DNA of 36,641 nucleotides, taken from the NCBI GenBank assembly GCA_016180085.1, contig JACPBX010000010.1:1-36641 (forward strand), given 5' to 3'. Below, piece after piece: positions 3,547-14,554 of the stretch (within the stretch, counting starts at the first letter, position 1; the number at the start of each line of letters is the position of its first letter). This DNA comes from Candidatus Woesearchaeota archaeon (GTDB lineage Archaea; Nanobdellota; Nanobdellia; Woesearchaeales; UBA10216). Position numbers and translations under genes: made by a program. The notes under the pieces are model-generated. The model searched no databases, had not been told where the DNA came from, and saw only the letters and a list, made by a program, of their open reading frames with translations.

Positions 3547-3728
3547 AGTGAAGGGATTCGCTGACGCTGCAAACGGCTAAAAACCGGCAGGCTCACTGCA
3601 CAGTCCAGCCGCCGTCAGCAACAATCGTCGTTCCTGTAGTGAAGGGATTCGCTGACGCTGCAAACGGCTAAAAACCGGCAGGCTCACTGCACAGTCCAGC
3701 CGCCGTCAGCAACAATCGTCGTTCCTGT
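3547..3728. repeat. Exact 91-bp tandem duplication spanning the SDR stop codon
   Basis: 3547-3637 is identical to 3638-3728. Confidence 0.95.
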
Positions 3729-4439
3729 AACGAATGATGACTCGTCAGATGCAAGGTAAAGGGCAGCGTAGGCTATGTCTTCAGGCTCGCCCAGCCTGCC
3801 GATGACCGTTGCCTGGAGCATGCCCTGCATGGTTTTCTTGTCATTCAGGATTCCCTTTGTCATCCCGGTCTTTATTACTCCGGGGCAGATAGCGTTTACC
3901 CGTATCTTGTTTGGTGCAAAATCAAGCGCCATGGATTTTGTAAGCTCAATCAGGCCGCCTTTTGACGCGCAGTAGGCAGCAATCTTTGCAAAGGCAACGC
4001 AGCCTGCAATCGAGGCAGTGTTGATTATCGAGCCCCCGCCTGCCCTGGCCATTTCAGGGATGGCATACTTTGAGCACAGCCATGCGCCCTTCAGGTTAAT
4101 GTCAATAACCCGGTTCCAGTCCTGCTCAGTGCACTCGACAGCATTGCCCCAGCGGACAATGCCTGCGTTGTTGTACAGGATATTCAGCTTGCCGAAGTTC
4201 TTGACAGCTGCGGCAACGATTGCCCTTGCATCAGAGTCTCTGGACACATCTGCCTTTACAAAAACAGACTTTCCTTTTGCCCTGGCAATCAGGCCAACAG
4301 TTCCCCTGCCGCCCTTTTCGTCATAGTCCGCAACAACGACCTTGGCGCCTTCCCTGGCAAAAAGAATTGCAGAAGCCCGCCCTATGCCGGAGCCTGCCCC
4401 TGTAACTATGGCAACTTTGCCTTTCAATCGATTAGCCAT
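3684..4439 (-). CDS. Short-chain dehydrogenase/reductase (FabG-like)
   Basis: TGAGSGIG, NNAG, YCASK, VNAICPG motifs; start set to MANRLKGK. Confidence 0.95.
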   Translation of the reverse strand: MANRLKGKVAIVTGAGSGIGRASAILFAREGAKVVVADYDEKGGRGTVGLIARAKGKSVFVKADVSRDSDARAIVAAAVKNFGKLNILYNNAGIVRWGNAVECTEQDWNRVIDINLKGAWLCSKYAIPEMARAGGGSIINTASIAGCVAFAKIAAYCASKGGLIELTKSMALDFAPNKIRVNAICPGVIKTGMTKGILNDKKTMQGMLQATVIGRLGEPEDIAYAALYLASDESSFVTGTTIVADGGWTVQ

Positions 4440-4452
4440 TGCAACCACCCCT

Positions 4453-4983
4453 TTATTCCTTGCAGCAGTCAATGATCTTCTTAAATATTTCTGCTATCCT
4501 GGAGAGCCCTGTCTTGCTTGCTTCCTTGCCAGATGAGCCTGTTTCGCTGCTTACACCGCTTATGCTGCTCTTGGCGTCTTTCCCGATGCTTTCCGGGCTG
4601 TTAACAGCCCAAAACAGGCTGTAAAGGTTGAAAGCCTCAATGAACATCTCCTCTGCTTCCTTCTTCCTGCCGTCATGCAGGTATTTTGTGCCCACTTCAG
4701 TCAGCCTCATGGTTGCAGCCAGCAGGTGCTTGCTGATGCACCAGTCCTCGCCCTTGTTGTCCCTTACTATCTTCTTCAGCAGCCTTTTCCTGAGCTCCCT
4801 GGTCTGCTCAAGCATAGGCAGGTATTGCCCGTTGTTTGTTTTCACAAAGCTGAACAGGAAGTGCTCTTCCAGGCTGATGAGGTTCATTATGCCTATGCTA
4901 AGGTCCTCGCCCAAGGACAGGTCCAGCTTGTTCCTGGCCTTAACCTCTTCAACCTGCTTAATGAAGTTTTCAACGTCTTTCAT
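4453..4983 (-). CDS. Helical hypothetical protein (EEH / WCISKHLL motifs, C-terminal CCKE)
   Basis: ATG at 4983 overlaps the upstream stop (ATGA); coding-like composition. Confidence 0.75.
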   Translation of the reverse strand: MKDVENFIKQVEEVKARNKLDLSLGEDLSIGIMNLISLEEHFLFSFVKTNNGQYLPMLEQTRELRKRLLKKIVRDNKGEDWCISKHLLAATMRLTEVGTKYLHDGRKKEAEEMFIEAFNLYSLFWAVNSPESIGKDAKSSISGVSSETGSSGKEASKTGLSRIAEIFKKIIDCCKE

Positions 4984-5540
4984 TTTGTCACAAAATAAAA
5001 TACCGCGCCGGTTGCCGCCAGGCAAAGCAGCGTTACTATTATGCCCTGAAACGGCATAAGGCTCTTCCCGCCGCGAACCTTCCTTATCCACTTGTGCAGG
5101 GCAAACGCGCCAACAGTCACAGCTGTGCCTGCAAGCGTTCCCACGAGCAGCTTGTCAACGCCAAACAGGTGATATGCCGGATCGGGCGAGCCGAGAAGCT
5201 TCGCCAGGTAAAGCGTCAGGAGAGTAAGGCCCAAAGATGCTATGATAAAAATCGTTGACTGGTATGGCATTAGCTCCCTGCCACTCCTTTTCTTTTTCAG
5301 CCATGTGCCAAACCAAAGTGCAGTGGAAACGACAAACCCGCCAATAAAAGTCCCTGTAACGGCATCATCAACGCCAAGAAACCTTGTTGCCGCAACCCCT
5401 CCGGCGGTTGCTGCAGCGCACAGAGGGCAGTGCGCCATCACAGGCTTTGCCATTGCCAAAGCAGATGCAGCTGACGCAGCCACTCCAGCAGCAAATTTCA
5501 ACGCAACGCCCCTGGCTCCCCTGAATGGTCCCATTTGCAA
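4980..5540 (-). CDS. Membrane protein with HCPLC motif after a signal-like segment
   Basis: AHCPLC, GVDDAVTG, four to five hydrophobic helices. Confidence 0.75.
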   Translation of the reverse strand: MQMGPFRGARGVALKFAAGVAASAASALAMAKPVMAHCPLCAAATAGGVAATRFLGVDDAVTGTFIGGFVVSTALWFGTWLKKKRSGRELMPYQSTIFIIASLGLTLLTLYLAKLLGSPDPAYHLFGVDKLLVGTLAGTAVTVGAFALHKWIRKVRGGKSLMPFQGIIVTLLCLAATGAVFYFVTK

Positions 5541-5560
5541 AACCCTGTGCCTTATGCTGC

Positions 5561-6118
5561 TTATGCTGGCGGCATCGGAGGATTCATGTCCATGCCTCTC
5601 TGCGAAGGCGCAATGCTGTTGTATTTTGTGTCAATAAGGTCCCTGACCTGCTTCAGAGTGTAGCCCTTGTTCAGCATGTCATCAGCCATGACCGCCAGGT
5701 CAACGCAGTATGGGCAGTCAATTGCAGCGTGGTCCTCCCAGTCGCCGCCTGTCTGGACAAAGCAGTCATACAGGTTATTCATCTTGGGAATGGTCTTGCC
5801 CCTGTGGCTCATGGCATGCATCCCGCAGCCGCAATGGCACGTAAGAAACTTGAACTCATCTTTCCTGGCTACTGCAACCTCGTAGGCCTTCATCGTCTTG
5901 GCGTTTCTCGTGGCAAAAGCCGGCAGGTCAAGGCTTGCAGTCACCGCGCCTGTGGCTCCCGCAGCTCCTGTATCTTCAGTCACAGATGCAGCACCCCGGG
6001 CTGCGGGGCTGTGGTCGCTGCTGTCGCCTTCGCCGGAATATAGCTTCATCATAGGCGCGCCAATGCTTAAAACAAGCAACGCAATAATCATGACAGAAAC
6101 CCACTTTGAAATTGCCAT
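5561..6118 (-). CDS. PCYCGC-motif family exported metal-binding protein
   Basis: TCHCGCG...SH...NLYDCF...DHAAIDCPYCVDLA...QVRDLIDTKY; N-terminal anchor; RBS GAGGGTGA. Confidence 0.75.
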   Translation of the reverse strand: MAISKWVSVMIIALLVLSIGAPMMKLYSGEGDSSDHSPAARGAASVTEDTGAAGATGAVTASLDLPAFATRNAKTMKAYEVAVARKDEFKFLTCHCGCGMHAMSHRGKTIPKMNNLYDCFVQTGGDWEDHAAIDCPYCVDLAVMADDMLNKGYTLKQVRDLIDTKYNSIAPSQRGMDMNPPMPPA

Positions 6119-6341: not shown

Positions 6342-6468
6342 TGAAAACTGCAAAGAAGTACGGCACATCATGCTGAAAAAACTTGATTTCCTGCAGAGGG
6401 AGTTAAAAGGTGGCATCTGCCATTTCCAGATTGACGTGACCGGCTTGTGCGAGAAATGCAGGAAATAA
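6340..6468 (+). pseudogene. C-terminal remnant of a Fur-family regulator
   Basis: xENCKEVRHI...LDFLQREL...ICHFQIDVTGLCEKCRK* fits the Fur CxxC...H.....G.CxxC dimerisation domain; DNA-binding half absent. Confidence 0.5.
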
Positions 6469-6510: not shown

Positions 6511-7011
6511 ATGGCATCGATTGACGACATTGTGGCTGCAATAAATGCCACGCTCTCAGAGGCGGAGCTTAAACAAATACGCCATGGATGGATAGTCCGA
6601 GGCAGGGACAATGGATATCTTAGGCTAGAGCTGGCGCATTCCATAGTTAATGCGTTAGAGAAAATTGACGACCAAACGCTTGAAGGTGAAGCAAAGGAGT
6701 TTTACGCATGGGCTGTTTTTGTAGCAGAAATCATACAAGCTCCAATGCTGAAATTCGAGATTGCTGCGATACCTCACTTAGTTGGCAAAGACAGCAGGAA
6801 AGAAGCCGCGGCGGCTTCCAGGCTATATCTTAAAGGCTTGGATCTTATGAGCGTTTTTGAGAGCGATCCCAGGACTCTGGCAGGCTCCGGTTCCGTAGGC
6901 GTCACTAATGATGAAACGGGAAAGTATAATATGCTTAACAGGGCTGGAGAAGTCATTATACAGGCTTACCAGTCGCTATGGGCCAAAGTAGTTGATGCCA
7001 AAGGAGAATAA
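6511..7011 (+). CDS. Hypothetical protein
   Basis: 166-aa ORF about 25 nt after AAAGCTTTAAAT promoter. Confidence 0.7.
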   Translation: MASIDDIVAAINATLSEAELKQIRHGWIVRGRDNGYLRLELAHSIVNALEKIDDQTLEGEAKEFYAWAVFVAEIIQAPMLKFEIAAIPHLVGKDSRKEAAAASRLYLKGLDLMSVFESDPRTLAGSGSVGVTNDETGKYNMLNRAGEVIIQAYQSLWAKVVDAKGE

Positions 7012-7026
7012 AAAGAAAGAAAAAAC
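7008..7026 (-). terminator. Oligo-U terminator-like tract after the 21-aa peptide gene
   Basis: Minus-strand GTTTTTCTTTCTTTTTATT immediately after TGA. Confidence 0.4.
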
Positions 7027-7092
7027 TCACTTCTTCTTTTTGCTGCCCTTCTTCTCCTTCATGTCATCGCTGCATCCGCACGTTCCGCACAT
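7027..7092 (-). CDS. 21-aa Cys micro-peptide MCGTCGCSDDMKEKKGSKKKK
   Basis: Perfect GAGGTGA RBS 5 nt before ATG, own TATA (TTTAAA at about 7147-7142), U-rich terminator; below the ORF-track cutoff. Confidence 0.7.
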   Translation of the reverse strand: MCGTCGCSDDMKEKKGSKKKK

Positions 7093-7117
7093 GGCAGTCA
7101 CCTCACATTAAATACAA

Positions 7118-7131
7118 TTTACAATTGCAAA
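7118..7131. promoter_or_regulatory. BlaI/CopY-type operator candidate
   Basis: TTTACAATTGCAAA near-perfect palindrome containing TACA-AT-TGCA (one mismatch to TACAnnTGTA), between TATA and RBS of the micro-peptide. Confidence 0.5.
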
Positions 7132-7156
7132 TGGCTTGTTCTTTAAATATTTTCCC

Positions 7157-7930
7157 TTAATGACTTTTTGCAAAATCTGTTATGGAACCAAGCTCAGTCT
7201 GAATATCGGTGTCTGCGCTTCCATAACTGATTAATATTTTATCCAAGTCGTTAAAAACGTGATCTCCAAAGCCGTTATTTTGCACGCCGTTGACGTAAAA
7301 CCTAAGCTTTTTGCCTTCCGAATTACAAAACTGCCGATTATTTGGGAACTTAAGGCACGCCTCGTTGAAATCACCGCCTATGCTCCTGAAAAACAGCCAC
7401 AAAGGCACACCAGTAGCGTGCATATGAATGACATCGCCTGTCATTTCAGGAGGCTGCGCGCCTTTATCAACGTGAATAAAGCTGCTGGTTGCATTGGCGT
7501 CCATCTTTGACATGTCCATCGCAAAAGGCTCAAAATCAAAAGCTACGCCGTCCATGTAGACCTTCCAATCAGCATGTATGTGCTGCGAACCCAACACGCC
7601 AATGGTTGATTTAGTGTCCATGTTGCACTGAAGCTGGCCAGAGCTTATGCACATCTCAACAGGCATGCCGCATGCGTCGCATTTGCCATCGTTGTCCTTA
7701 TCCATGAATTCCTTTGCCAATGCAACGTCAAAGCCTGTTAAGGACATACGGCTTAAACGGCTGCCCATTTTATTCGAGTCAACCTCACTTGGCTTACTTG
7801 TTGCTTCGCCACCAGCTTCTTTTTGAAAATTGACAAACGAGGAAATGCTAAAAATCAAAGTGACTAAGACTATAGCTAAAGTTCCATATACTAAATAATC
7901 CTCCTTAACTTTCACTTTCATTTTTCCCAC
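7157..7930 (-). CDS. Membrane-anchored His-rich protein (HxHAD family) with DxDxDG and CxxC
   Basis: TM anchor; DKDNDGKCDAC; HIHADWKVY, FIHV, VIHMHATG, FYVNG, DLDKILISYG. Confidence 0.8.
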   Translation of the reverse strand: MGKMKVKVKEDYLVYGTLAIVLVTLIFSISSFVNFQKEAGGEATSKPSEVDSNKMGSRLSRMSLTGFDVALAKEFMDKDNDGKCDACGMPVEMCISSGQLQCNMDTKSTIGVLGSQHIHADWKVYMDGVAFDFEPFAMDMSKMDANATSSFIHVDKGAQPPEMTGDVIHMHATGVPLWLFFRSIGGDFNEACLKFPNNRQFCNSEGKKLRFYVNGVQNNGFGDHVFNDLDKILISYGSADTDIQTELGSITDFAKSH

Positions 7931-7931
7931 T

Positions 7932-8435
7932 TCATTTAGCCTTTGCCACTCCCGCTTTTGTTTTTACAGCTATCTTATCCTTGATTAATAATATAACACT
8001 CAACGCCACTAGCGCTCCACCTGCTGTCCAAAAAATCAAGTTAAACTGCTGTGCAGCCTGGAAAGGAGTGCCGGCAACTATAAGCCCCGCGTTTAGCATC
8101 AAGGCCTTGCCAGAGAGGCAGCCCATTTTCCTCAGCTTGAGCAGCAGCAGAATGCCGAAGAGTATCACCGCAGCGGTCCAGAACGGCACTGCCACTTTCT
8201 GAAGAAAGAGAAGGGGCATTCCAACAACTGTAACCCCAATCAGCGCAAGCAGGGCAATTGCGGCAGTGCAGACGTTGTGGCAGACTGTCCATGAGCTGAA
8301 GATGCCCATCAGGCCGCTTGCGCTGCTGGTTGCGCTCAGGATTTTTTCCTTCAACCCCGTAGCTGCTGGCGCTGCAGTCGGCTTTGCTGTTGCTTTGCCC
8401 TTTGCAGTTTTGGCCTTTACTGCCTTATTTGCCAT
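7932..8435 (-). CDS. Membrane protein with CHNVC motif (possible metal transporter/permease)
   Basis: CxxxC in first helix, four hydrophobic helices; RBS GAGGAG before ATG 8435. Confidence 0.7.
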   Translation of the reverse strand: MANKAVKAKTAKGKATAKPTAAPAATGLKEKILSATSSASGLMGIFSSWTVCHNVCTAAIALLALIGVTVVGMPLLFLQKVAVPFWTAAVILFGILLLLKLRKMGCLSGKALMLNAGLIVAGTPFQAAQQFNLIFWTAGGALVALSVILLIKDKIAVKTKAGVAKAK

Positions 8436-9042
8436 GCTTTCTCCTCGCAGCAGTGTGGCTTTGGCCTTTTGCACCCTTCCACATCTTCAGAAGCCAGAAA
8501 TATACCAGCCCTACAAGGCCGAGCAGCAGTATTACGTACAAAATATTTGTCAAAGTCCAGTAGCCGCTGCCAATGCTGCTGTAGCCGGAACTTCCCATCA
8601 TTCCCTGCGTGTTTTGCCCGAAGCCCATTCCCTGCATCATCCTCATCATGGGCATCATCCTGCCTGCTACTGTGCCCGCCCCCATTATTCCGCCGCTGCC
8701 AATTGCCGTGCCTACGCCTGTGCCTGTGTCGCAGTACATCGCCTGTGCAAGGTTGATATGGAACTGGTCATGGTAAGGTGTGCCTTCCTCAATTCCCATC
8801 ATCCTGTGCATCACATCATGCGCATCGCCAGGATGCATCTGCTCCATCAGGTATTCGCCAATCGCTTCAAGCTGCTCGTTGCCAAGCTCGTCACAGCTTA
8901 CGCCGCTGTCAAAAAGCTCCTTGCCTATGGCAATCTCGCTTTCTTCGCTTCCGCCTTCATGCGCAATTGCGGCAGCCGCCATCACCAAAAATGCAACTGC
9001 AAAAAATACGATAAATATGCCAGAACAATTTGCTTTTTTCAT
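8425..9042 (-). CDS. Met/His-rich exported/membrane protein
   Basis: Signal ending AIAHEG; MEQMHPGDAHDVMHRMMG; GRMMPMMRMMQGMG; C-terminal TM helix. Confidence 0.75.
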   Translation of the reverse strand: MKKANCSGIFIVFFAVAFLVMAAAAIAHEGGSEESEIAIGKELFDSGVSCDELGNEQLEAIGEYLMEQMHPGDAHDVMHRMMGIEEGTPYHDQFHINLAQAMYCDTGTGVGTAIGSGGIMGAGTVAGRMMPMMRMMQGMGFGQNTQGMMGSSGYSSIGSGYWTLTNILYVILLLGLVGLVYFWLLKMWKGAKGQSHTAARRKHGK

Positions 9043-9069
9043 TGTTTCACCCTCAAAGTTTTATCCAAG

Positions 9070-9693
9070 CTAACATCCAAACTCCCCGCTAATCGGGCAA
9101 ACGGATGAAGCGTTAGCCTTCAATTTCGGAGTTCCAGGCTCTTTGCCTTTGCTTATGTAATCCTCAGCAATAGTGGTGTTCCACTCGTGCTCGTGGTTCC
9201 ACAGGTTCCAGAAGTGGCGCCATTCGTTCCAGCCAATTCCGAGATGCTTCACATAGATGCCGTTTTCAGCAAGCATCTTCCCAATCTTCCTGCCCGTCAT
9301 GCAGGGCATGCTGTAGCAGTAAACTATGATGTCCTTGTCCTTAGGCAACGCTGCAAACGCGGAAACTATCCTGTCAACGTCGCCGTAGGCTGCTGTGTTG
9401 CGGTCGCTGTATGCCGGAATGTTCACGGCGCCAACTATGTGCTCAGCCTCATATTCCTCTGCGCTGCGCAGGTCAACAAGGACATAGTCATCAACGCCCT
9501 TGTCCATCTTGCCCTTCAGGCTGTGAGGGCTGACGTGGACTGCGTTCTCTGCCAGATAAAAGCCCTTAATAAGCTCATCCTCGCTTGGTTCGGCCGGGCT
9601 TTGCACATTTAAGACCACAACTGCGGCTATTGCCCCGGATACTGCGCCTAATATTAGAGCCAGCATAAGCGTAACAGCTGCCGGTTTCATCAT
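9070..9693 (-). CDS. Membrane-anchored rhodanese-domain protein
   Basis: LVDLRSAEEYEAEHIVGAVNIP, IIVYCYSMPC; ATG 9693 overlaps the osmC stop. Confidence 0.85.
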   Translation of the reverse strand: MMKPAAVTLMLALILGAVSGAIAAVVVLNVQSPAEPSEDELIKGFYLAENAVHVSPHSLKGKMDKGVDDYVLVDLRSAEEYEAEHIVGAVNIPAYSDRNTAAYGDVDRIVSAFAALPKDKDIIVYCYSMPCMTGRKIGKMLAENGIYVKHLGIGWNEWRHFWNLWNHEHEWNTTIAEDYISKGKEPGTPKLKANASSVCPISGEFGC

Positions 9694-10247
9694 TGTGCCT
9701 CGCCTTGCGCCTCGTCTACGCTTTGGGATGCGTGCAGCTCTACACTGAGCTTTATCGGATGCGTCAGGCAATAGATGCCAGGGCACCTGCCAAGTGCAGC
9801 CTGTTCGATTTCCTTTATTTTATTTTTATCTGCGCCGCACTCCACTTCAACTGTTAACTTGGCAGATTCAACAATAGGCTCTTCGCCTAGCCCTAATGGC
9901 TTGCTCAAATTTACCTTATTTTCCGCAGCTACTTTTAGCTTGTTGAGAGGCACACCTTGCTCGGTAGCGATGTTTGCGAATGTCTGTGCAAAGCATGAGG
10001 CAAGCCCAAAGAGGCAGTATTGCACGGGATCTGGCTTAAGCGCGTGCCCACCCGTAAACGCCGGCCCGTCAGCCTCAACAAGTGTCTTGTGGTCTCCGTG
10101 CTGCAGCTCTGCACGAAACTGGGGTTTTCCGTTGCCAAAAACCCATTCGCCCTCGACCTTTTTTATTTTGACAGCCTTACTACTGTCTTTTTTCACTTCT
10201 TCAATAAAATCGGCTGCTTTCTCAACATCTATATTGTTCATGTTCAC
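9690..10247 (-). CDS. OsmC/Ohr-family protein
   Basis: PDPVQYCLFGLASCF...RCPGIYCL conserved Cys pair. Confidence 0.85.
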   Translation of the reverse strand: MNMNNIDVEKAADFIEEVKKDSSKAVKIKKVEGEWVFGNGKPQFRAELQHGDHKTLVEADGPAFTGGHALKPDPVQYCLFGLASCFAQTFANIATEQGVPLNKLKVAAENKVNLSKPLGLGEEPIVESAKLTVEVECGADKNKIKEIEQAALGRCPGIYCLTHPIKLSVELHASQSVDEAQGEAQ

Positions 10248-10278
10248 ACAACACCTGTCGCTTGCTGCCTCTTGCCTA

Positions 10279-10692
10279 TTATTCGCCAGATTGTTCGCCC
10301 GGTTCGTTCAGGCTGCACCCGCTTTTATCAGCAAGCTGCCCAAAGGTCATTTCCCCTCCAACCCTGCTCTTGTCAGAAAATTCCCAGGTTGGGTAGCCCT
10401 TTATGCCTGCCTCGCTGCAAACCTGAGTCTGGCCTGCGCGGTTTGGAAGGGAGCATTCAACATAATTGACATATTTCCAGCTGCTGCCAAACATTTCCTC
10501 CTGGTTTTGGCAGTGCGGGCACCAGTAAGCGCCGTACATCTTCACGCCGTTTTCGGTAAGGCACTTTGCAAAATCGTCATACTTCCCAGGCTCTTCGGTT
10601 TTCCCGCTTTTCTGCGCGTTTATTGCCATAGCAGCAGCGAAAGCCAAAACAGCGATTATGGCAAGCAGAATCACCTGACTTTTCTTTTTCAT
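10279..10692 (-). CDS. Membrane-anchored thioredoxin-like protein
   Basis: YGAYWCPHC...YVECS...C...IKGYPTW. Confidence 0.85.
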   Translation of the reverse strand: MKKKSQVILLAIIAVLAFAAAMAINAQKSGKTEEPGKYDDFAKCLTENGVKMYGAYWCPHCQNQEEMFGSSWKYVNYVECSLPNRAGQTQVCSEAGIKGYPTWEFSDKSRVGGEMTFGQLADKSGCSLNEPGEQSGE

Positions 10693-10728
10693 GATTATGA
10701 CCTTCCCCTTATCGGTTTTTAAACTCTC

Positions 10729-11904
10729 TTACCGCTTTGCTTCTGCCTTAAGCTGCCTTTTCACAAAATAAAGCAGCAGCGCAGCAAAGGCCAAGAGCAC
10801 GGCTGCCGCAACAAAATTGAATTTTGCAGTGTTCTCAAGCACTGCATCGCTCAGCCTTTCGGTAAGGCCTGTTGTGCGGACCTGGTACTTGTGCGTTATG
10901 AACGCGAATATTGCAAGCGCTGCAAAGATTTCCACTACAGCGGCCAGTTTTCTGGCGTTGCTGCTTGCAATTAGCCTGGAAATAACAAACTTGTGCAAAA
11001 CCAGCGTGGCTGCACCAAGCACAGCTAGCAGGAAAATCATGCCGAGCAAATCAGCAGCTGTTATTATTGTTGTGCCCCTGCTTATTATGAACAGCGCGCC
11101 GAGAAAAATCAGGAGCAGCCCCGAGATGATGTTAGTGCTTGCCAGCAGCAGCTTCTTTTTCCCTACGTTCAGGGTTATTGCAAACCCCCTGATAAGCCTG
11201 CTCTCGGCAAGGTTAAACCTATCATACGCGAACGATACCGCGAAGAGAGGGATTGCCAGGCCAAGCGCGTAAAAGAACAGCAGCAGAGCGGTATAGGCGT
11301 AGTTGTTGAAAACAGCAGCCATTGTGAAAATTCCTGCAATAACAGGGCCTATGCAGGCAGACCAGCCAATCGCGAACAACGCCCCGAATATGAAAGTGCC
11401 CGGGGCATCCTTCGGCAGCCTGCCCCTGAGGTGGATAAACGAGAACCCTTTCCCGAAGAACATCATCACGCCCAGGGCTATCAGGATTATCCCTGATGCC
11501 TGAACCAGGACTGCTATGTCCTGCTGGAACGTCACAAATGAAACCCTGCCGAGCGCGGTTAATGCGATGCCGAGGGCAATGAACGCCAGCGAAAACCCGC
11601 CGAAAAACTCAAGCGTCGTGAGGGTGATGTTCCTGCGGCTTTTCGCTGTGTAAGCGAGGAATGCAGGAAGCAGGGCAACTGTGCACGGCGCAAGGAAGCT
11701 GAGGATGCCGCCGAGGAAAGCGATTAGGAAAGTAACGTTCCTAAGCGTTGACTCGGCCGTAAAGCGGTTGTAGTCCTGAAGCTTCTGCAGGATGTTCAGC
11801 TGCTTCTCAATGCCGCTATCTTCGGCATTTTGAGCGGCAGCATAACTTGCAGCAAGCAGCAGGAAAAGCAATAATGATGCGATGATGCGCAAGGCCGCTG
11901 CCAT
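10729..11904 (-). CDS. ccdA: CcdA/DsbD-family transmembrane electron transporter
   Basis: GILSFLAPCTVALLP and GWSACIGPVI motifs; extra C-terminal helices. Confidence 0.85.
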   Translation of the reverse strand: MAAALRIIASLLLFLLLAASYAAAQNAEDSGIEKQLNILQKLQDYNRFTAESTLRNVTFLIAFLGGILSFLAPCTVALLPAFLAYTAKSRRNITLTTLEFFGGFSLAFIALGIALTALGRVSFVTFQQDIAVLVQASGIILIALGVMMFFGKGFSFIHLRGRLPKDAPGTFIFGALFAIGWSACIGPVIAGIFTMAAVFNNYAYTALLLFFYALGLAIPLFAVSFAYDRFNLAESRLIRGFAITLNVGKKKLLLASTNIISGLLLIFLGALFIISRGTTIITAADLLGMIFLLAVLGAATLVLHKFVISRLIASSNARKLAAVVEIFAALAIFAFITHKYQVRTTGLTERLSDAVLENTAKFNFVAAAVLLAFAALLLYFVKRQLKAEAKR

Positions 11905-11906
11905 TT

Positions 11907-12530
11907 TTACCCGAACACGATATTTATCTCATCGCCATCACGGGGCATGTAATGGTTAAACTCAGTGTTTTCAACGTCGTTGACGAACATCTTCACAGTG
12001 CCATCAGGGCCGTTGCAATAGTCAAGGATGCACTCGCTGCTGAACTTTTTCTTCCAGACATCACTGAAGAAGTAGCCGAGCTGCATGTTTTTAACCGTGG
12101 GAGCCTGAACCTCCCAGTGCAGGATGTTGTCAGTTGCATGCGTGTGGACAGGCTTATGAACAGAGCCTTCAAGCCCCAAATTCGTAGGGATGGTTACCGC
12201 CTTGCCTTTAATTAGTATAGTAACATGAGGGTGCCAGTGTATTGCTCCTTTCGGAATTTTCGCAGCAAAAGCCTTTTCATCAAAGCCATCGCTGCCGCCA
12301 CCGTCGGGCGTTATTAACGGCTTGTCACCATTGCCGCCCTTTCCAGCGAAAACAAAATAGCCGCCAATAACAATTAAAGCTATAACAGCTGCAACGATAA
12401 TTTTCTTGTTCAAGCCCTTTTTCTTCGGCGCTTCCTTTGGCTGCGCGGTGTGCTTTGCCTGCTTGTGCTGTTCCAGGCTTTCAGGGCTCTGGAATTCCTT
12501 ATTGCAACCGCTGCAGAGATGTTTTTCCAT
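11907..12530 (-). CDS. C2H2 zinc finger + TM helix + His-rich HxH domain protein
   Basis: CSGCNKEFQSPESLEQHKQAKH; HWHPH, VHTH, LHWE, MFVND, RDGDEINIVFG. Confidence 0.8.
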   Translation of the reverse strand: MEKHLCSGCNKEFQSPESLEQHKQAKHTAQPKEAPKKKGLNKKIIVAAVIALIVIGGYFVFAGKGGNGDKPLITPDGGGSDGFDEKAFAAKIPKGAIHWHPHVTILIKGKAVTIPTNLGLEGSVHKPVHTHATDNILHWEVQAPTVKNMQLGYFFSDVWKKKFSSECILDYCNGPDGTVKMFVNDVENTEFNHYMPRDGDEINIVFG

Positions 12531-12573
12531 GTTTAAGACCTATATTAACCCGTATCAAGACAATTCAAGGCAG

Positions 12574-13335
12574 CTACCCCGCCCTTTCCCTGCAGTAGCT
12601 GACAATCTTTTCCTTTGCTGAATCCAGATGCCTTGACGTGCCCTGAACAGCTGCCGCGAAACTGTCGGCTTTCATTTCATCCTCGCTTACCCTGCTGCTG
12701 TCAGGAAAATTTGCAAGCGCATAGAATGGCGAAAGCAGCCTTGCCACATAGCCCGATAGCTTGAGAACCGAAGCCCTGCCCTTTATGTGGGCAAGCTCAT
12801 GAAGCACAATCGCCTCAATCTCCTTTTTCCAAAGAATGTCAAACAGGCCTGCAGAAAGGAAAATCCTTGGCGTGAACAGCGAAAAAGAGAAGGCAACAGG
12901 CGTTGCAGTGTTAAGGATGTACAGCTTTGGCTGCCTTATCGCCAGCCCGCCAGAGTGCCTTTGCACAAGCCTGTTCCAGTGGCTGCCTTGCAGGAGGGAT
13001 GCCTTTCGGGACTGCCTTTTTACAAAGACAATCGGGGCAACCGCAAGGGCTATGACCATCGCAATGACTGCCGTGAGCCCAAGCATCGTCAGTATTGCCT
13101 TCGCCTGGTCACAGCCGGAAAAGTAGCTCTGGCACCCCCTGAAGAAGATGAAGAACAGGAACGGAAACACGAAGGCAAAAACGTGGATGTACAGAAGCGT
13201 AAGGCGCTTCTTCGTGTCAGCGGTTTTGAGCCTTCTCAGCATGACAAGCGCAGCAATCGCTATCGCAAACGACAGGATAACTATGCCCGATTTCAGAGGG
13301 CTCATGAAAAATGCCAGCGTACATTCAGTGCACAT
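12574..13335 (-). CDS. BlaR1/M56-like (M48-related) membrane zinc metalloprotease without penicillin-binding domain
   Basis: Three TM helices then PVAFSF...PRIFLSAGL...IVLHELAHIK...E..AD. Confidence 0.85.
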   Translation of the reverse strand: MCTECTLAFFMSPLKSGIVILSFAIAIAALVMLRRLKTADTKKRLTLLYIHVFAFVFPFLFFIFFRGCQSYFSGCDQAKAILTMLGLTAVIAMVIALAVAPIVFVKRQSRKASLLQGSHWNRLVQRHSGGLAIRQPKLYILNTATPVAFSFSLFTPRIFLSAGLFDILWKKEIEAIVLHELAHIKGRASVLKLSGYVARLLSPFYALANFPDSSRVSEDEMKADSFAAAVQGTSRHLDSAKEKIVSYCRERAG

Positions 13336-13405
13336 TCAGCCTGCCTCACTAAAAGCTAAACAACTGCCCCCTTTTAATTTTTGCCATTTTCCGGCTTTAT
13401 CTGCC

Positions 13406-13756
13406 TTATTTTTTTCCCTTTACAAAACGCTCGTTAAAGTAGCTGATGGCAACATTGCCAAACTTCTCAATCAGCCTGTTAACAGTCTCATCAACGACAG
13501 ACAGCTCAAACTGCTTCCTGTCCTTCTTCGGGAAGTAGACATACCTTAAGCCTCCCCTCGCTGTTTCAATCCTCCTGTCAACAACGCCTTTTTCGAAGAG
13601 CCTGTCAAGAATCACAGCTACGCTTGTCAGGGCAACCTTCCTGCCCTTCTTCAGCTTCTGGTAAATCTCCCTAACCCTCAGCGCCCTGTCAGGCCAAAGC
13701 ACAACCAGCACATCGTTCTCAAGGGGGCTGAGCACTGAACTGAACATGCGCTTCAT
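13406..13756 (-). CDS. BlaI/MecI/CopY-family transcriptional repressor
   Basis: LSPLENDVLVVLW...VREIY...ALTSVAVILDRLFEKGVVDR...YVYFP. Confidence 0.9.
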   Translation of the reverse strand: MKRMFSSVLSPLENDVLVVLWPDRALRVREIYQKLKKGRKVALTSVAVILDRLFEKGVVDRRIETARGGLRYVYFPKKDRKQFELSVVDETVNRLIEKFGNVAISYFNERFVKGKK

Positions 13757-13798
13757 GCCAGAACCGGTTCTTTAGCAAGTATAAATATTTTTCTAATA

Positions 13799-13814
13799 TT
13801 GTAAAGCTTTACAA
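13799..13814. promoter_or_regulatory. Perfect 16-bp palindrome in the divergent blaI promoter
   Basis: TTGTAAAGCTTTACAA between two opposed TATA boxes. Confidence 0.55.
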
Positions 13815-13870
13815 CAAAAGATTTAAATATGTGCTGTATTACAAAAGTTGCAAAGGTTGTTAAAGCTAAA

Positions 13871-14554
13871 ATGGTTCTCAAAAAAGACAACAACGCCAAG
13901 CTTCTTGTTCTGGTTGCTGTAGCTGCAGTTGTGCTGCTGCTAAACCAGTGGCAGATAATGGCCATTTCCGACCTGACAGGAGGCAGCGGAGGGTCCTCAA
14001 AAGGGACAAAACTCAACGTCAAGCTGTCAGGCGATGTTGTGCAGGACGCAATAAAGGCAGTAGTCCCAACCGGCACTCCGCTGTATGGCGCAGAACTTGG
14101 CGTGAGCTTTGATGACCCAATAAACAGCCTGAACATACTTGCCAAGCTCGACAGGCAGGTGCCAACCAACACCCTGGCAGAAGCGGAAAAAGCAAGGTTC
14201 ATCAATGTTGGAACAAGAATCAGCTGCGAGTTCTGCTGCGGCGCGCCATCCGTGGTTGACCAAAGTGGAAGAGACCTCTGCGGCTGCTCCCACGCTGCAT
14301 CGTTCAAGGGCCTTTCAAAATACCTTATTAAAAACCATCCGGGCGAGTGGAGTGATGACGAGATACTGCTTGAGCTGACAAAGTGGAAGGCGTTATATTA
14401 TCCCAAGAACATGGTCGAGAAGGCTGTAGCTGCACTGGAGAATGGCATGGAGCTCACGCCTGCAGTGCTTAACGACAGGGATTTGCTCAAGAAAATATCA
14501 GCAGGCGACACAACAAGCATCGGAGATCTCCCGTCAATGGTCGGCGGATGCTAA
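13871..14554 (+). CDS. Membrane-anchored Cys-cluster protein ending DLPSMVGGC
   Basis: TM anchor; ISCEFCCG, CGCSH; C-terminal MVGGC*. Confidence 0.8.
   Translation: MVLKKDNNAKLLVLVAVAAVVLLLNQWQIMAISDLTGGSGGSSKGTKLNVKLSGDVVQDAIKAVVPTGTPLYGAELGVSFDDPINSLNILAKLDRQVPTNTLAEAEKARFINVGTRISCEFCCGAPSVVDQSGRDLCGCSHAASFKGLSKYLIKNHPGEWSDDEILLELTKWKALYYPKNMVEKAVAALENGMELTPAVLNDRDLLKKISAGDTTSIGDLPSMVGGC

Follow-up and report, generated by a model that had tools for sequence, protein, structure and literature searches.

The window, a stretch of 36,641 nucleotides (nt) from a Woesearchaeota (DPANN) archaeon (contig JACPBX010000010.1), carries on its minus strand a micro open reading frame (micro-ORF) of 21 codons which encodes the peptide MCGTCGCSDDMKEKKGSKKKK. 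Judged by its sequence and its relatives, the micro-ORF is a real gene of a groundwater archaeon with a genome of about 1 Mb and codes for a microprotein of 21 residues. The host genome (G000; 998,598 bp, 45 contigs, ~83% complete) encodes TBP, and the window DNA was found in groundwater metagenome runs. All elements that an initial annotation had listed for the locus (a TATA box, a palindrome, GAGGTGA, the reading frame and a T tract) are present on the minus strand (Table 1). The start codon is followed by TGC GGA ACG TGC GGA TGC AGC GAT GAC ATG AAG GAG AAG AAG GGC AGC AAA AAG AAG AAG TGA, i.e. three Cys and seven Lys codons among 21, with 7 Lys in the tail of 14 residues, and the DNA right after the stop reads GTTTTTTCTTTCTTTTT. 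The ORF listing of the window shows the micro-ORF solely as a version of 24 amino acids (aa) started from GTG. We take ATG as the start because this GTG sits within the Shine-Dalgarno (SD) sequence and is out of frame in the related genome G367. A convergent ORF of 166 aa (6511-7011) abuts the T tract with its stop codon, so that no same-strand gene lies 3' of the micro-ORF in the window. No Rfam RNA family was found at the micro-ORF locus. Apart from the micro-ORF, no small ORF of the 1-Mb host genome combines an SD with three or more Cys among the first 10 residues and a basic share of at least 30%.

Table 1. Features of the micro-ORF locus in the window and of a second cysteine micro-gene locus in the same genome
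Feature	Position	Strand	Remarks
Micro-ORF, 21 codons and TGA stop, peptide MCGTCGCSDDMKEKKGSKKKK	7027..7092	-	From sequence; conserved in G367, G410, G407 and L219 with third-position changes
Start codon ATG	7092-7090	-	
Stop codon TGA	7029-7027	-	
Shine-Dalgarno sequence GAGGTGA	7098..7104	-	GAGG 8 nt before ATG
TATA-like element AAATATTTA	7144..7152	-	~52 nt 5' of ATG; probable own archaeal promoter
Imperfect palindrome TTTACAATTGCAAA	7118..7131	.	6/7 pairs; present, operator role not supported
Oligo-T tract TTTTTTCTTTCTTTTT	7010..7025	-	Directly 3' of stop; likely archaeal terminator (inferred)
Gene of 257-aa membrane-anchored protein	7157..7930	-	5' neighbour of micro-ORF; stop at 7157
ArsR-type gene, contig C22 (L269) of G000	3653-3946		
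C22 micro-ORF 1, MAEDKTCGCGSGKKEKDCCGSG	3953-4021		Preceded by SD
C22 micro-ORF 2, MADTCEHCGSGGA	4058-4099		Preceded by SD
C22 glutaredoxin gene	4151-4390		
C22 thioredoxin-reductase-like gene	4703-5722		

The micro-ORF was carried by 6 of 10 genomes of the genus and by 10 of 25 genomes of the family, with differing flanks. A search of the family with the pattern MCxxCGC matched these 10 of 25 genomes compared to none for the control, and all ten matches are short ORFs following an SD. An extra match in G409 (contig C39) has no SD and looks like chance. In a sample of 401 genomes of the phylum the degenerate pattern MCGxCGC matched nine genomes and its reversed control one; eight of the nine matches are ORFs of 14-21 codons, and seven of these eight have the SD GGAGGTG (GGAGGTGA) 8-9 nt upstream. 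A profile of the family detected no members beyond the pattern matches in this sample. The peptides of the relatives are MCGTCGCSDEMKEKKGGKKKK (G367), MCGTCGCSDDMKEKKSGKKKK (G410), MCGSCGCSDGKEKKGSKKKK (G407), MCDSCGCGGSSPPKAR (G406), MCNVCGCSGDMKEKKKKKKK (G200), MCGVCGCTPEEGKKKKKK (G402) and, with only 13 aa and a tail that is nearly absent, MCGSCGCSDDEGK (G409). G008 and G166 hold further members of the ten, with acidic tails.

Four alleles of 21 codons share 89-98% nucleotide identity, and their variable sites are distributed 2/1/6 over the three codon positions. The metagenome contig L219 encodes an identical peptide with one synonymous change behind an unrelated 5' flank. Between G000 and G367 the neighbouring gene for the 257-aa protein is 86% identical, and the intergenic DNA does not align. 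Moreover, in contigs of four groundwater runs the summed depth increased 10-25 fold exactly over positions 7024-7104, and at 7027, 7029 and 7092 contigs diverged into a number of different flanks. The contigs are DNA and stem from a single study; the pile-up shows that the ORF is common to co-occurring genomes and is silent on expression. The initial annotation had described a stand-alone micro-gene, and this is supported: ORF and ribosome-binding site recur together in relatives with different surroundings.

An own promoter and terminator had also been proposed, and for an archaeon both are plausible. The TATA-like sequence occurs in four copies in the window compared to 0.33 expected, all of them on the minus strand, intergenic and 5' of minus-strand genes, including the promoter of a BlaI-like gene. 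Boxes resembling TATTTAAG were found 5' of the micro-ORF in G367, G410, G200 and G402, and a similar T-rich tract lies 3' of it in L219, G410 and G407. An own archaeal promoter is thus a plausible element of the locus, and the oligo-T tract likely corresponds to archaeal termination. Since the host is an archaeon, as indicated by its TBP, a scan for sigma-70 promoters and hairpin terminators is irrelevant here.

In contrast, the initial annotation was not supported as regards the operator. It had suggested that the palindrome TTTACAATTGCAAA is an operator bound by a BlaI/CopY-type repressor encoded in the window (13406-13756, 116 aa). This palindrome is absent in G367, G410 and L219, all of which keep the micro-ORF. 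Besides, when the 64-nt spacer was shuffled, an equally good one arose in about 10% of cases, and 67 such palindromes occur in the window. We therefore reject TTTACAATTGCAAA as an operator, as it is not conserved and no better than chance (~0.10). Near-matches to the cop-box TACAnnTGTA numbered four in the window compared to 7.1 expected. The promoter of the BlaI-like gene itself carries a different, perfect 16-bp palindrome, TTGTAAAGCTTTACAA (13799-13814), which abuts its TATA box and is identical in G367; no other copy with up to three mismatches was found in the window. It is a probable autoregulatory operator of the BlaI-like repressor. This protein has no Cys and lacks the C-terminal CxCxxxxCxC metal site of CopY, and it scored 28.5 bits against the CopY_TcrY model with a cut-off of 122. 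Because of the missing Cys we consider it BlaI-type, paired with the M56/M48 protease at 12574-13335, and not CopY-type. Membership of the micro-ORF in a CopY/BlaI regulon was accordingly discarded: no repressor-type operator is present, the palindrome is not conserved and the repressor has no CopY site. Next to this gene, a minus-strand ORF of 184 aa (13753-14307) is broken in G367 and the overlapping plus-strand ORF of 241 aa (13829-14554) is 85% conserved. Therefore, the latter is the real gene, divergent from the BlaI-like gene.

The head of the peptide leads to the hydrogenase maturation protein HypB. We searched for an SD followed by MCG[T/S]CGC with one genome per species. Among the 80 matches listed, 60 are ORFs with a GxGKT P-loop, and six further ones, truncated where the locus ends, show His-rich N-termini and are likewise read as HypB; Thr occupies position 4 in 65 of these 66 HypB-like ORFs. 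By sequence, MCGTCGC is the canonical, that is the commonest, HypB N-terminus among the matches listed, and MCTTCGC of Escherichia coli is a variant of it. The similarity is closer than the initial annotation had claimed. The NCBIfam hits for the peptide were solely HypB_prefix_2 (NF053668; E 7.8e-4) and HypB_prefix_1 (NF053667), at 19.8 and 16.3 bits and thus below their cut-offs of 35 and 30 bits, respectively. No match was found in Pfam (E <= 10) or PHROGs. In HypB, the CxxCGC motif forms a square-planar Ni(II) site built from the amine at the N-terminus, Cys2, Cys5 and Cys7 with picomolar to sub-picomolar affinity, and a peptide model of the motif binds Zn(II) as well (PMC12284835, PMC7055735). 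As in HypB, C-x-x-C-G-C is the sole invariant part of the microprotein family, and positions 3 and 4 vary (MCNVCGC, MCDSCGC, MCGVCGC). The peptide of the window shares all of its first seven residues with the HypB extension, including Cys at residue 2, so that the alpha-amine could serve as a ligand. Unlike HypB, it has neither the His-rich linker nor the G3E GTPase domain with its CH...C metal site; a Lys tail replaces the body of the protein.

The identity of the head with the high-affinity Ni(II) site of HypB might indicate a nickel-specific chaperone or store, i.e. a detached HypB extension which feeds a nickel enzyme. Such an enzyme was not found. We searched five carrier genomes, G000 and the 92-99% complete genomes G367, G008, G166 and G050. 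HypB/G3E GTPase (PF02492), the [NiFe]-hydrogenase large subunit (PF00374) and CbiM were not found in any of the five, and NicO gave nothing over the cut-off, only a match below it. G000 had no G3E match, and two relatives had marginal P-loop matches in frames of 420-463 aa. A nickel-specific role is therefore unlikely, and we regard a peptide that supplies a nickel enzyme as highly improbable. Since neither HypB nor [NiFe]-hydrogenase was found, homeostasis under thiol or metal stress would be the probable task of the peptide rather than hydrogenase maturation.

The micro-ORF has many relatives beyond its own phylum. We scanned metagenomes for MCG[T/S/C/W]CGC with one KKK within 10 codons and no other requirement, and retrieved 99 stretches, 96 of them with KKK in frame. 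Unique sequences number 73 for the peptides and 84 for the DNA. The 94 ORFs that are complete all have 11-29 codons, and 91 of the 96 members are preceded by an SD. The alignment has the consensus MCGxCGCxxKKKKKKK, and the tails consist of Lys to about 65% (531 of 815 residues). Some members are enriched in Cys with extra CxxC or CxC groups, for example MCGTCGCEDKKKCPGCGKPVDKCDCKD. Some of the contigs carry archaeal markers such as the large subunit of PolD. A bacterial subfamily of 18 aa, MCGTCGC[QKRS]DKKKKPAPKK, is located on GC-rich contigs (L144, L152, L183, L200, L212, L217 and others). Its copies are self-contained units with a TTGC..TATAAT-type promoter, a short hairpin that takes in the AAGGA ribosome-binding site, and a terminator of GC hairpin and T-run; variation within the ORF is almost purely synonymous. 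The copy on L217 lies about 340 nt past a bacterial 5S ribosomal RNA (rRNA) gene.

With position 3 left free, at least 119 Lys-rich ORFs of 29-75 aa were found on viral contigs of IMG/VR (loci L290-L369 and beyond). They start with MCATCGC, MCAACGC, MCAVCGC, MCVKCGC or similar sequences; GKKKGEPGFGKG is frequent in them, as is a DGKLEGSDFAALRKKKK segment near the C-terminus. These phage microproteins share the head pattern, the richness in Lys and the own ribosome-binding sites with the peptide of the window; they differ in their greater length, in A/M/V/I at position 3 and in the conserved GKKKGEPGFGKG. On the viral contigs hardly any instance of the cellular form, with its Gly at position 3, was seen (one match). 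A tblastn search of annotated phages with the window peptide, a short query subject to the low-complexity filter, gave no match. In the literature searched neither MCGTCGC nor MCGSCGC turned up in any paper, and 'CXXCGC' was not found in use for a family of stand-alone small proteins. The sequences represent a large family of probable metal-binding microproteins, which we did not find described there, with 11-29 aa in archaea and bacteria and longer relatives in phages. With its length, SD, Lys tail and conservation amid unrelated flanks the window peptide fits this family of MCxxCGC Lys-rich microproteins, whose members are built from two modules, an invariant N-terminal M-C-x-x-C-G-C head and a short, mostly lysine tail.

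Such basic tails could also point to a structural role, in which Lys holds the peptide on the ribosome, RNA or the nucleoid and the Cys head acts as zinc knuckle or cross-link, comparable to tiny basic ribosomal proteins or protamines. Many members lie among housekeeping and translation genes (aIF-1A, EF-2, CysRS, RtcB, PolD), the bacterial copy just past the rRNA operon would suit this role, and the longer phage relatives are very basic. However, a gene present in only ~2% of the phylum genomes sampled does not encode a core component. Tails that are acidic in G008 and G166 and nearly absent in the 13-aa peptide of G409 do not fit a polyanion binder either. We thus judge a structural function to be quite unlikely.

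In the window the micro-ORF is preceded on the same strand by a thiol/metal island (7157-13756), in which the gene of the 257-aa protein is the last large one. The island starts with the BlaI-type repressor, the M56/M48 BlaR1-like protease, a 207-aa protein and DsbD_TM, and continues with a thioredoxin-like protein, OsmC, rhodanese, a Met/Gly-rich protein, a Cys-containing membrane protein and the 257-aa protein. G367 and G410 share the order 257-aa gene, micro-ORF, gdh, and L219 has DsbD_TM, micro-ORF, gdh. In G407 a ferric-reductase-like membrane protein and a thioredoxin-reductase-like gene precede the micro-ORF, which follows 5 nt on and faces a Fur-family gene. In G406 the order is FNR-like gene, ArsR, micro-ORF, glutaredoxin, DSP phosphatase, thioredoxin-reductase-like gene. 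G050, from another family, has Fur, glutaredoxin and the micro-ORF, and in G409 the micro-ORF is followed by Lgt and VIT1. In the wider family, NifS and NifU occur within 3.5 kb in five loci and NifU alone in two more; L182 and L189 have operons of NifS, NifU and the micro-ORF with a gap of 2-3 nt. The 133 dereplicated same-strand neighbours within 400 nt include DUF7343/MarR-type regulators (3-4) as well as NifU, rubrerythrin, ribonucleotide reductase and Glu dehydrogenase (2 each). The theme of the context is cysteine, thiol, iron and metal, with modest statistical weight. The enrichment of thiol, metal and iron-sulfur neighbours is no more than suggestive, as its seeds were taken from these very loci and common ancestry links many of them.

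The micro-ORF lies downstream of cysS in 13 loci, in part at a distance of 2-12 nt, and the order cysS, micro-ORF, rbcL (form-III RuBisCO) is kept down to 38% CysRS identity (L186, L229, L210, L177 and others); some of these loci have gaps of 2-13 nt. This position, directly before rbcL, gdh or a glutaredoxin gene, together with the three Cys and seven Lys codons among 21, would be expected of a regulatory leader or upstream ORF which senses the supply of Cys- or Lys-transfer RNA; a chance ORF or a non-coding RNA is a related explanation. However, the micro-ORF of the window is followed by the oligo-T tract and a convergent gene and has no co-directional gene 3' of it to regulate. In the bacterial subfamily the terminator is placed directly 3' of the ORF. 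Moreover, the strong SD is conserved, and the peptide is kept while wobble positions vary and flanks are unrelated. An explanation by a leader, a chance ORF or an RNA is consequently very unlikely.

The same genome has a second set of Cys micro-genes. On contig C22 two micro-ORFs are situated between an ArsR-type and a glutaredoxin gene (Table 1). The first product, MAEDKTCGCGSGKKEKDCCGSG, has with CxCGSGKKxKxCCG the zinc motif SEC-C (PF02810; its 10.9 bits are under the cut-off) and is identical in 21 of 22 residues in G166, a genome of another genus. The second slot between ArsR and glutaredoxin is filled by MCGTCGDGGGA in G166 and by the CxxCGC peptide MCDSCGCGGSSPPKAR in G406. Different minimal Cys motifs thus share one operon position, which speaks for a metal or thiol role of the class as a whole. 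SEC-C, known as the C-terminal zinc motif of SecA and also found solo, is likewise a minimal Cys metal motif that occurs as stand-alone microprotein; it differs in its motif and its separate gene, and the window peptide does not match SEC-C.

Several genes near the micro-ORF are noteworthy in their own right. For the 257-aa protein there are 584 homologues among Woesearchaeota, Aenigmarchaeota and further DPANN archaea; it matched no Pfam or NCBIfam family. Its invariant residues are C81, C84, C91, C99, H114, H116, H150, H166, H168 and H254. An AlphaFold2 model (predicted local distance difference test, pLDDT, 78) had no significant fold match in the PDB; the best one (E 0.02) was to transcobalamin beta-domain-like folds. 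The protein is probably an extracytoplasmic metalloprotein. Two further minus-strand genes, both without family match and conserved in G367, encode a membrane protein of 180 aa which contains the motif CHNVC (7932-8474) and a secreted Met/Gly-rich protein of 205 aa (MMPMMRMMQGMG..., 8425-9042). In G409 the homologue of the 180-aa protein comes after the 257-aa gene, i.e. in a different gene order. On the other side of the micro-ORF, a plus-strand ORF of 32 codons (6370-6468, ...KGGICHFQIDVTGLCEKCRK) is what is left, at the C-terminal end, of a Fur-family gene, which is intact (123 aa) in G407 and convergent with the micro-ORF there. The locus of the window is rearranged, with the 166-aa gene, which has no family match, now lying between the Fur remnant and the micro-ORF. 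The minus-strand gene at 5561-6118 encodes a PCYCGC/CYCXC-family protein (Pfam PF13798; below cut-off for NCBIfam OS_HP4_CYCXC) with a CHCGCG motif, another CGC-containing protein near the micro-ORF.

The gene, its family, the identity of its motif and its genomic context are matters of observation; for its function we lean towards a thiolate metal-binding head on a polycation which is used in thiol/metal-stress homeostasis. The head would chelate an ion of a thiophilic metal or metalloid, and the tail, a polycation, could hold the complex on polyanions such as RNA, DNA or acidic lipids. The peptide may in this way buffer, sequester or hand over the ion. Such a metallothionein-like function is a reasonable proposal and would be in line with the genes for DsbD, thioredoxin reductase, glutaredoxin, Fur and ArsR that adjoin the micro-ORF in relatives. 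Like the prokaryotic metallothioneins of the SmtA/BmtA type and MymT, the product is a short Cys-rich peptide without enzymatic domain encoded near Fur or ArsR. It differs in having three Cys, enough for one site, and in its N-terminal-amine-type site and polybasic tail, and no Pfam or NCBIfam metallothionein model was matched by the peptide. In contrast to phytochelatins, which are functional analogues, it would be made by the ribosome.

The same neighbours would also suit a redox-active thiol peptide, in which CxxC and CGC cycle between dithiol and disulfide. The peptide would then be an encoded low-molecular-weight thiol or a substrate of glutaredoxin or thioredoxin reductase. Genes for glutaredoxin, thioredoxin-reductase-like proteins, thioredoxin and DsbD are its neighbours in the window as well as in G406, G407, G050 and L219, and other Cys-rich micro-ORFs occur in the ArsR-glutaredoxin slot. 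CxxC is the classic redox motif, and a Cys-Gly-Cys peptide has been reported as a mimic of protein disulfide isomerase. However, redox cycling could do without Cys at residue 2, and the exact invariance of the HypB pattern C-x-x-C-G-C is left unexplained by it. Besides, Fur and ArsR are as frequent nearby as reductases. A conventional thiol may exist as well, since GCS2-family matches just over the cut-off were found in three of the five carriers; the ATP-grasp domain of glutathione synthetase was detected in G050 only among them. We consider a primarily redox-active peptide rather unlikely.

Several points weigh against metal binding in stress homeostasis, the function that we prefer. Translation in vivo, removal of Met, binding of a metal, the kind of metal and the role of the tail are all inferred. 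The head has only seven residues, so that its likeness to HypB could be convergent and its chemistry could differ. No nickel enzyme or transporter was found in the carriers, and an HMA/CopA-type gene was found in only one of the five (G166). The micro-ORF is patchy, with ~2% of the 401-genome phylum sample, and its two members in genus g2 (G008, G166) have acidic instead of basic tails. The thiol and metal contexts at genus level are variants of one ancestral locus beside gdh and hence not independent. Among the 133 neighbours there is no universal partner, and the commonest, CysRS (7-8) and form-III RuBisCO (5), are housekeeping genes.

As a tentative extension, which may well prove wrong, the Cys-headed microproteins of the CxxCGC type and of the SEC-C and CxxC types, the last two from the ArsR-glutaredoxin operon of this genome, could together be an encoded counterpart of phytochelatins or low-molecular-weight thiols. 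They might act as tri-thiol caps made by the ribosome for soft metals or metalloids such as As(III), Cd, Cu(I), Zn or Ni, which are recycled by glutaredoxin and thioredoxin reductase and parked by polylysine on nucleic acids or membranes. They would then form a minimal module of metal and redox defence in DPANN and bacteria, with a longer form in phages.

Gene callers miss ORFs of this size, and a widespread microprotein family has therefore been left unannotated in archaea and bacteria, together with a related form in phages. If the head binds metal as in HypB, its members would rank with the smallest known gene-encoded units in nature that bind metal, and such peptides could serve as minimal metal tags. 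The CxxCGC tip of HypB would, if this is true, be a portable module and not specific to HypB. The carriers are organisms with reduced genomes, and the microprotein may be one component of their little-understood balance of metals and thiols.

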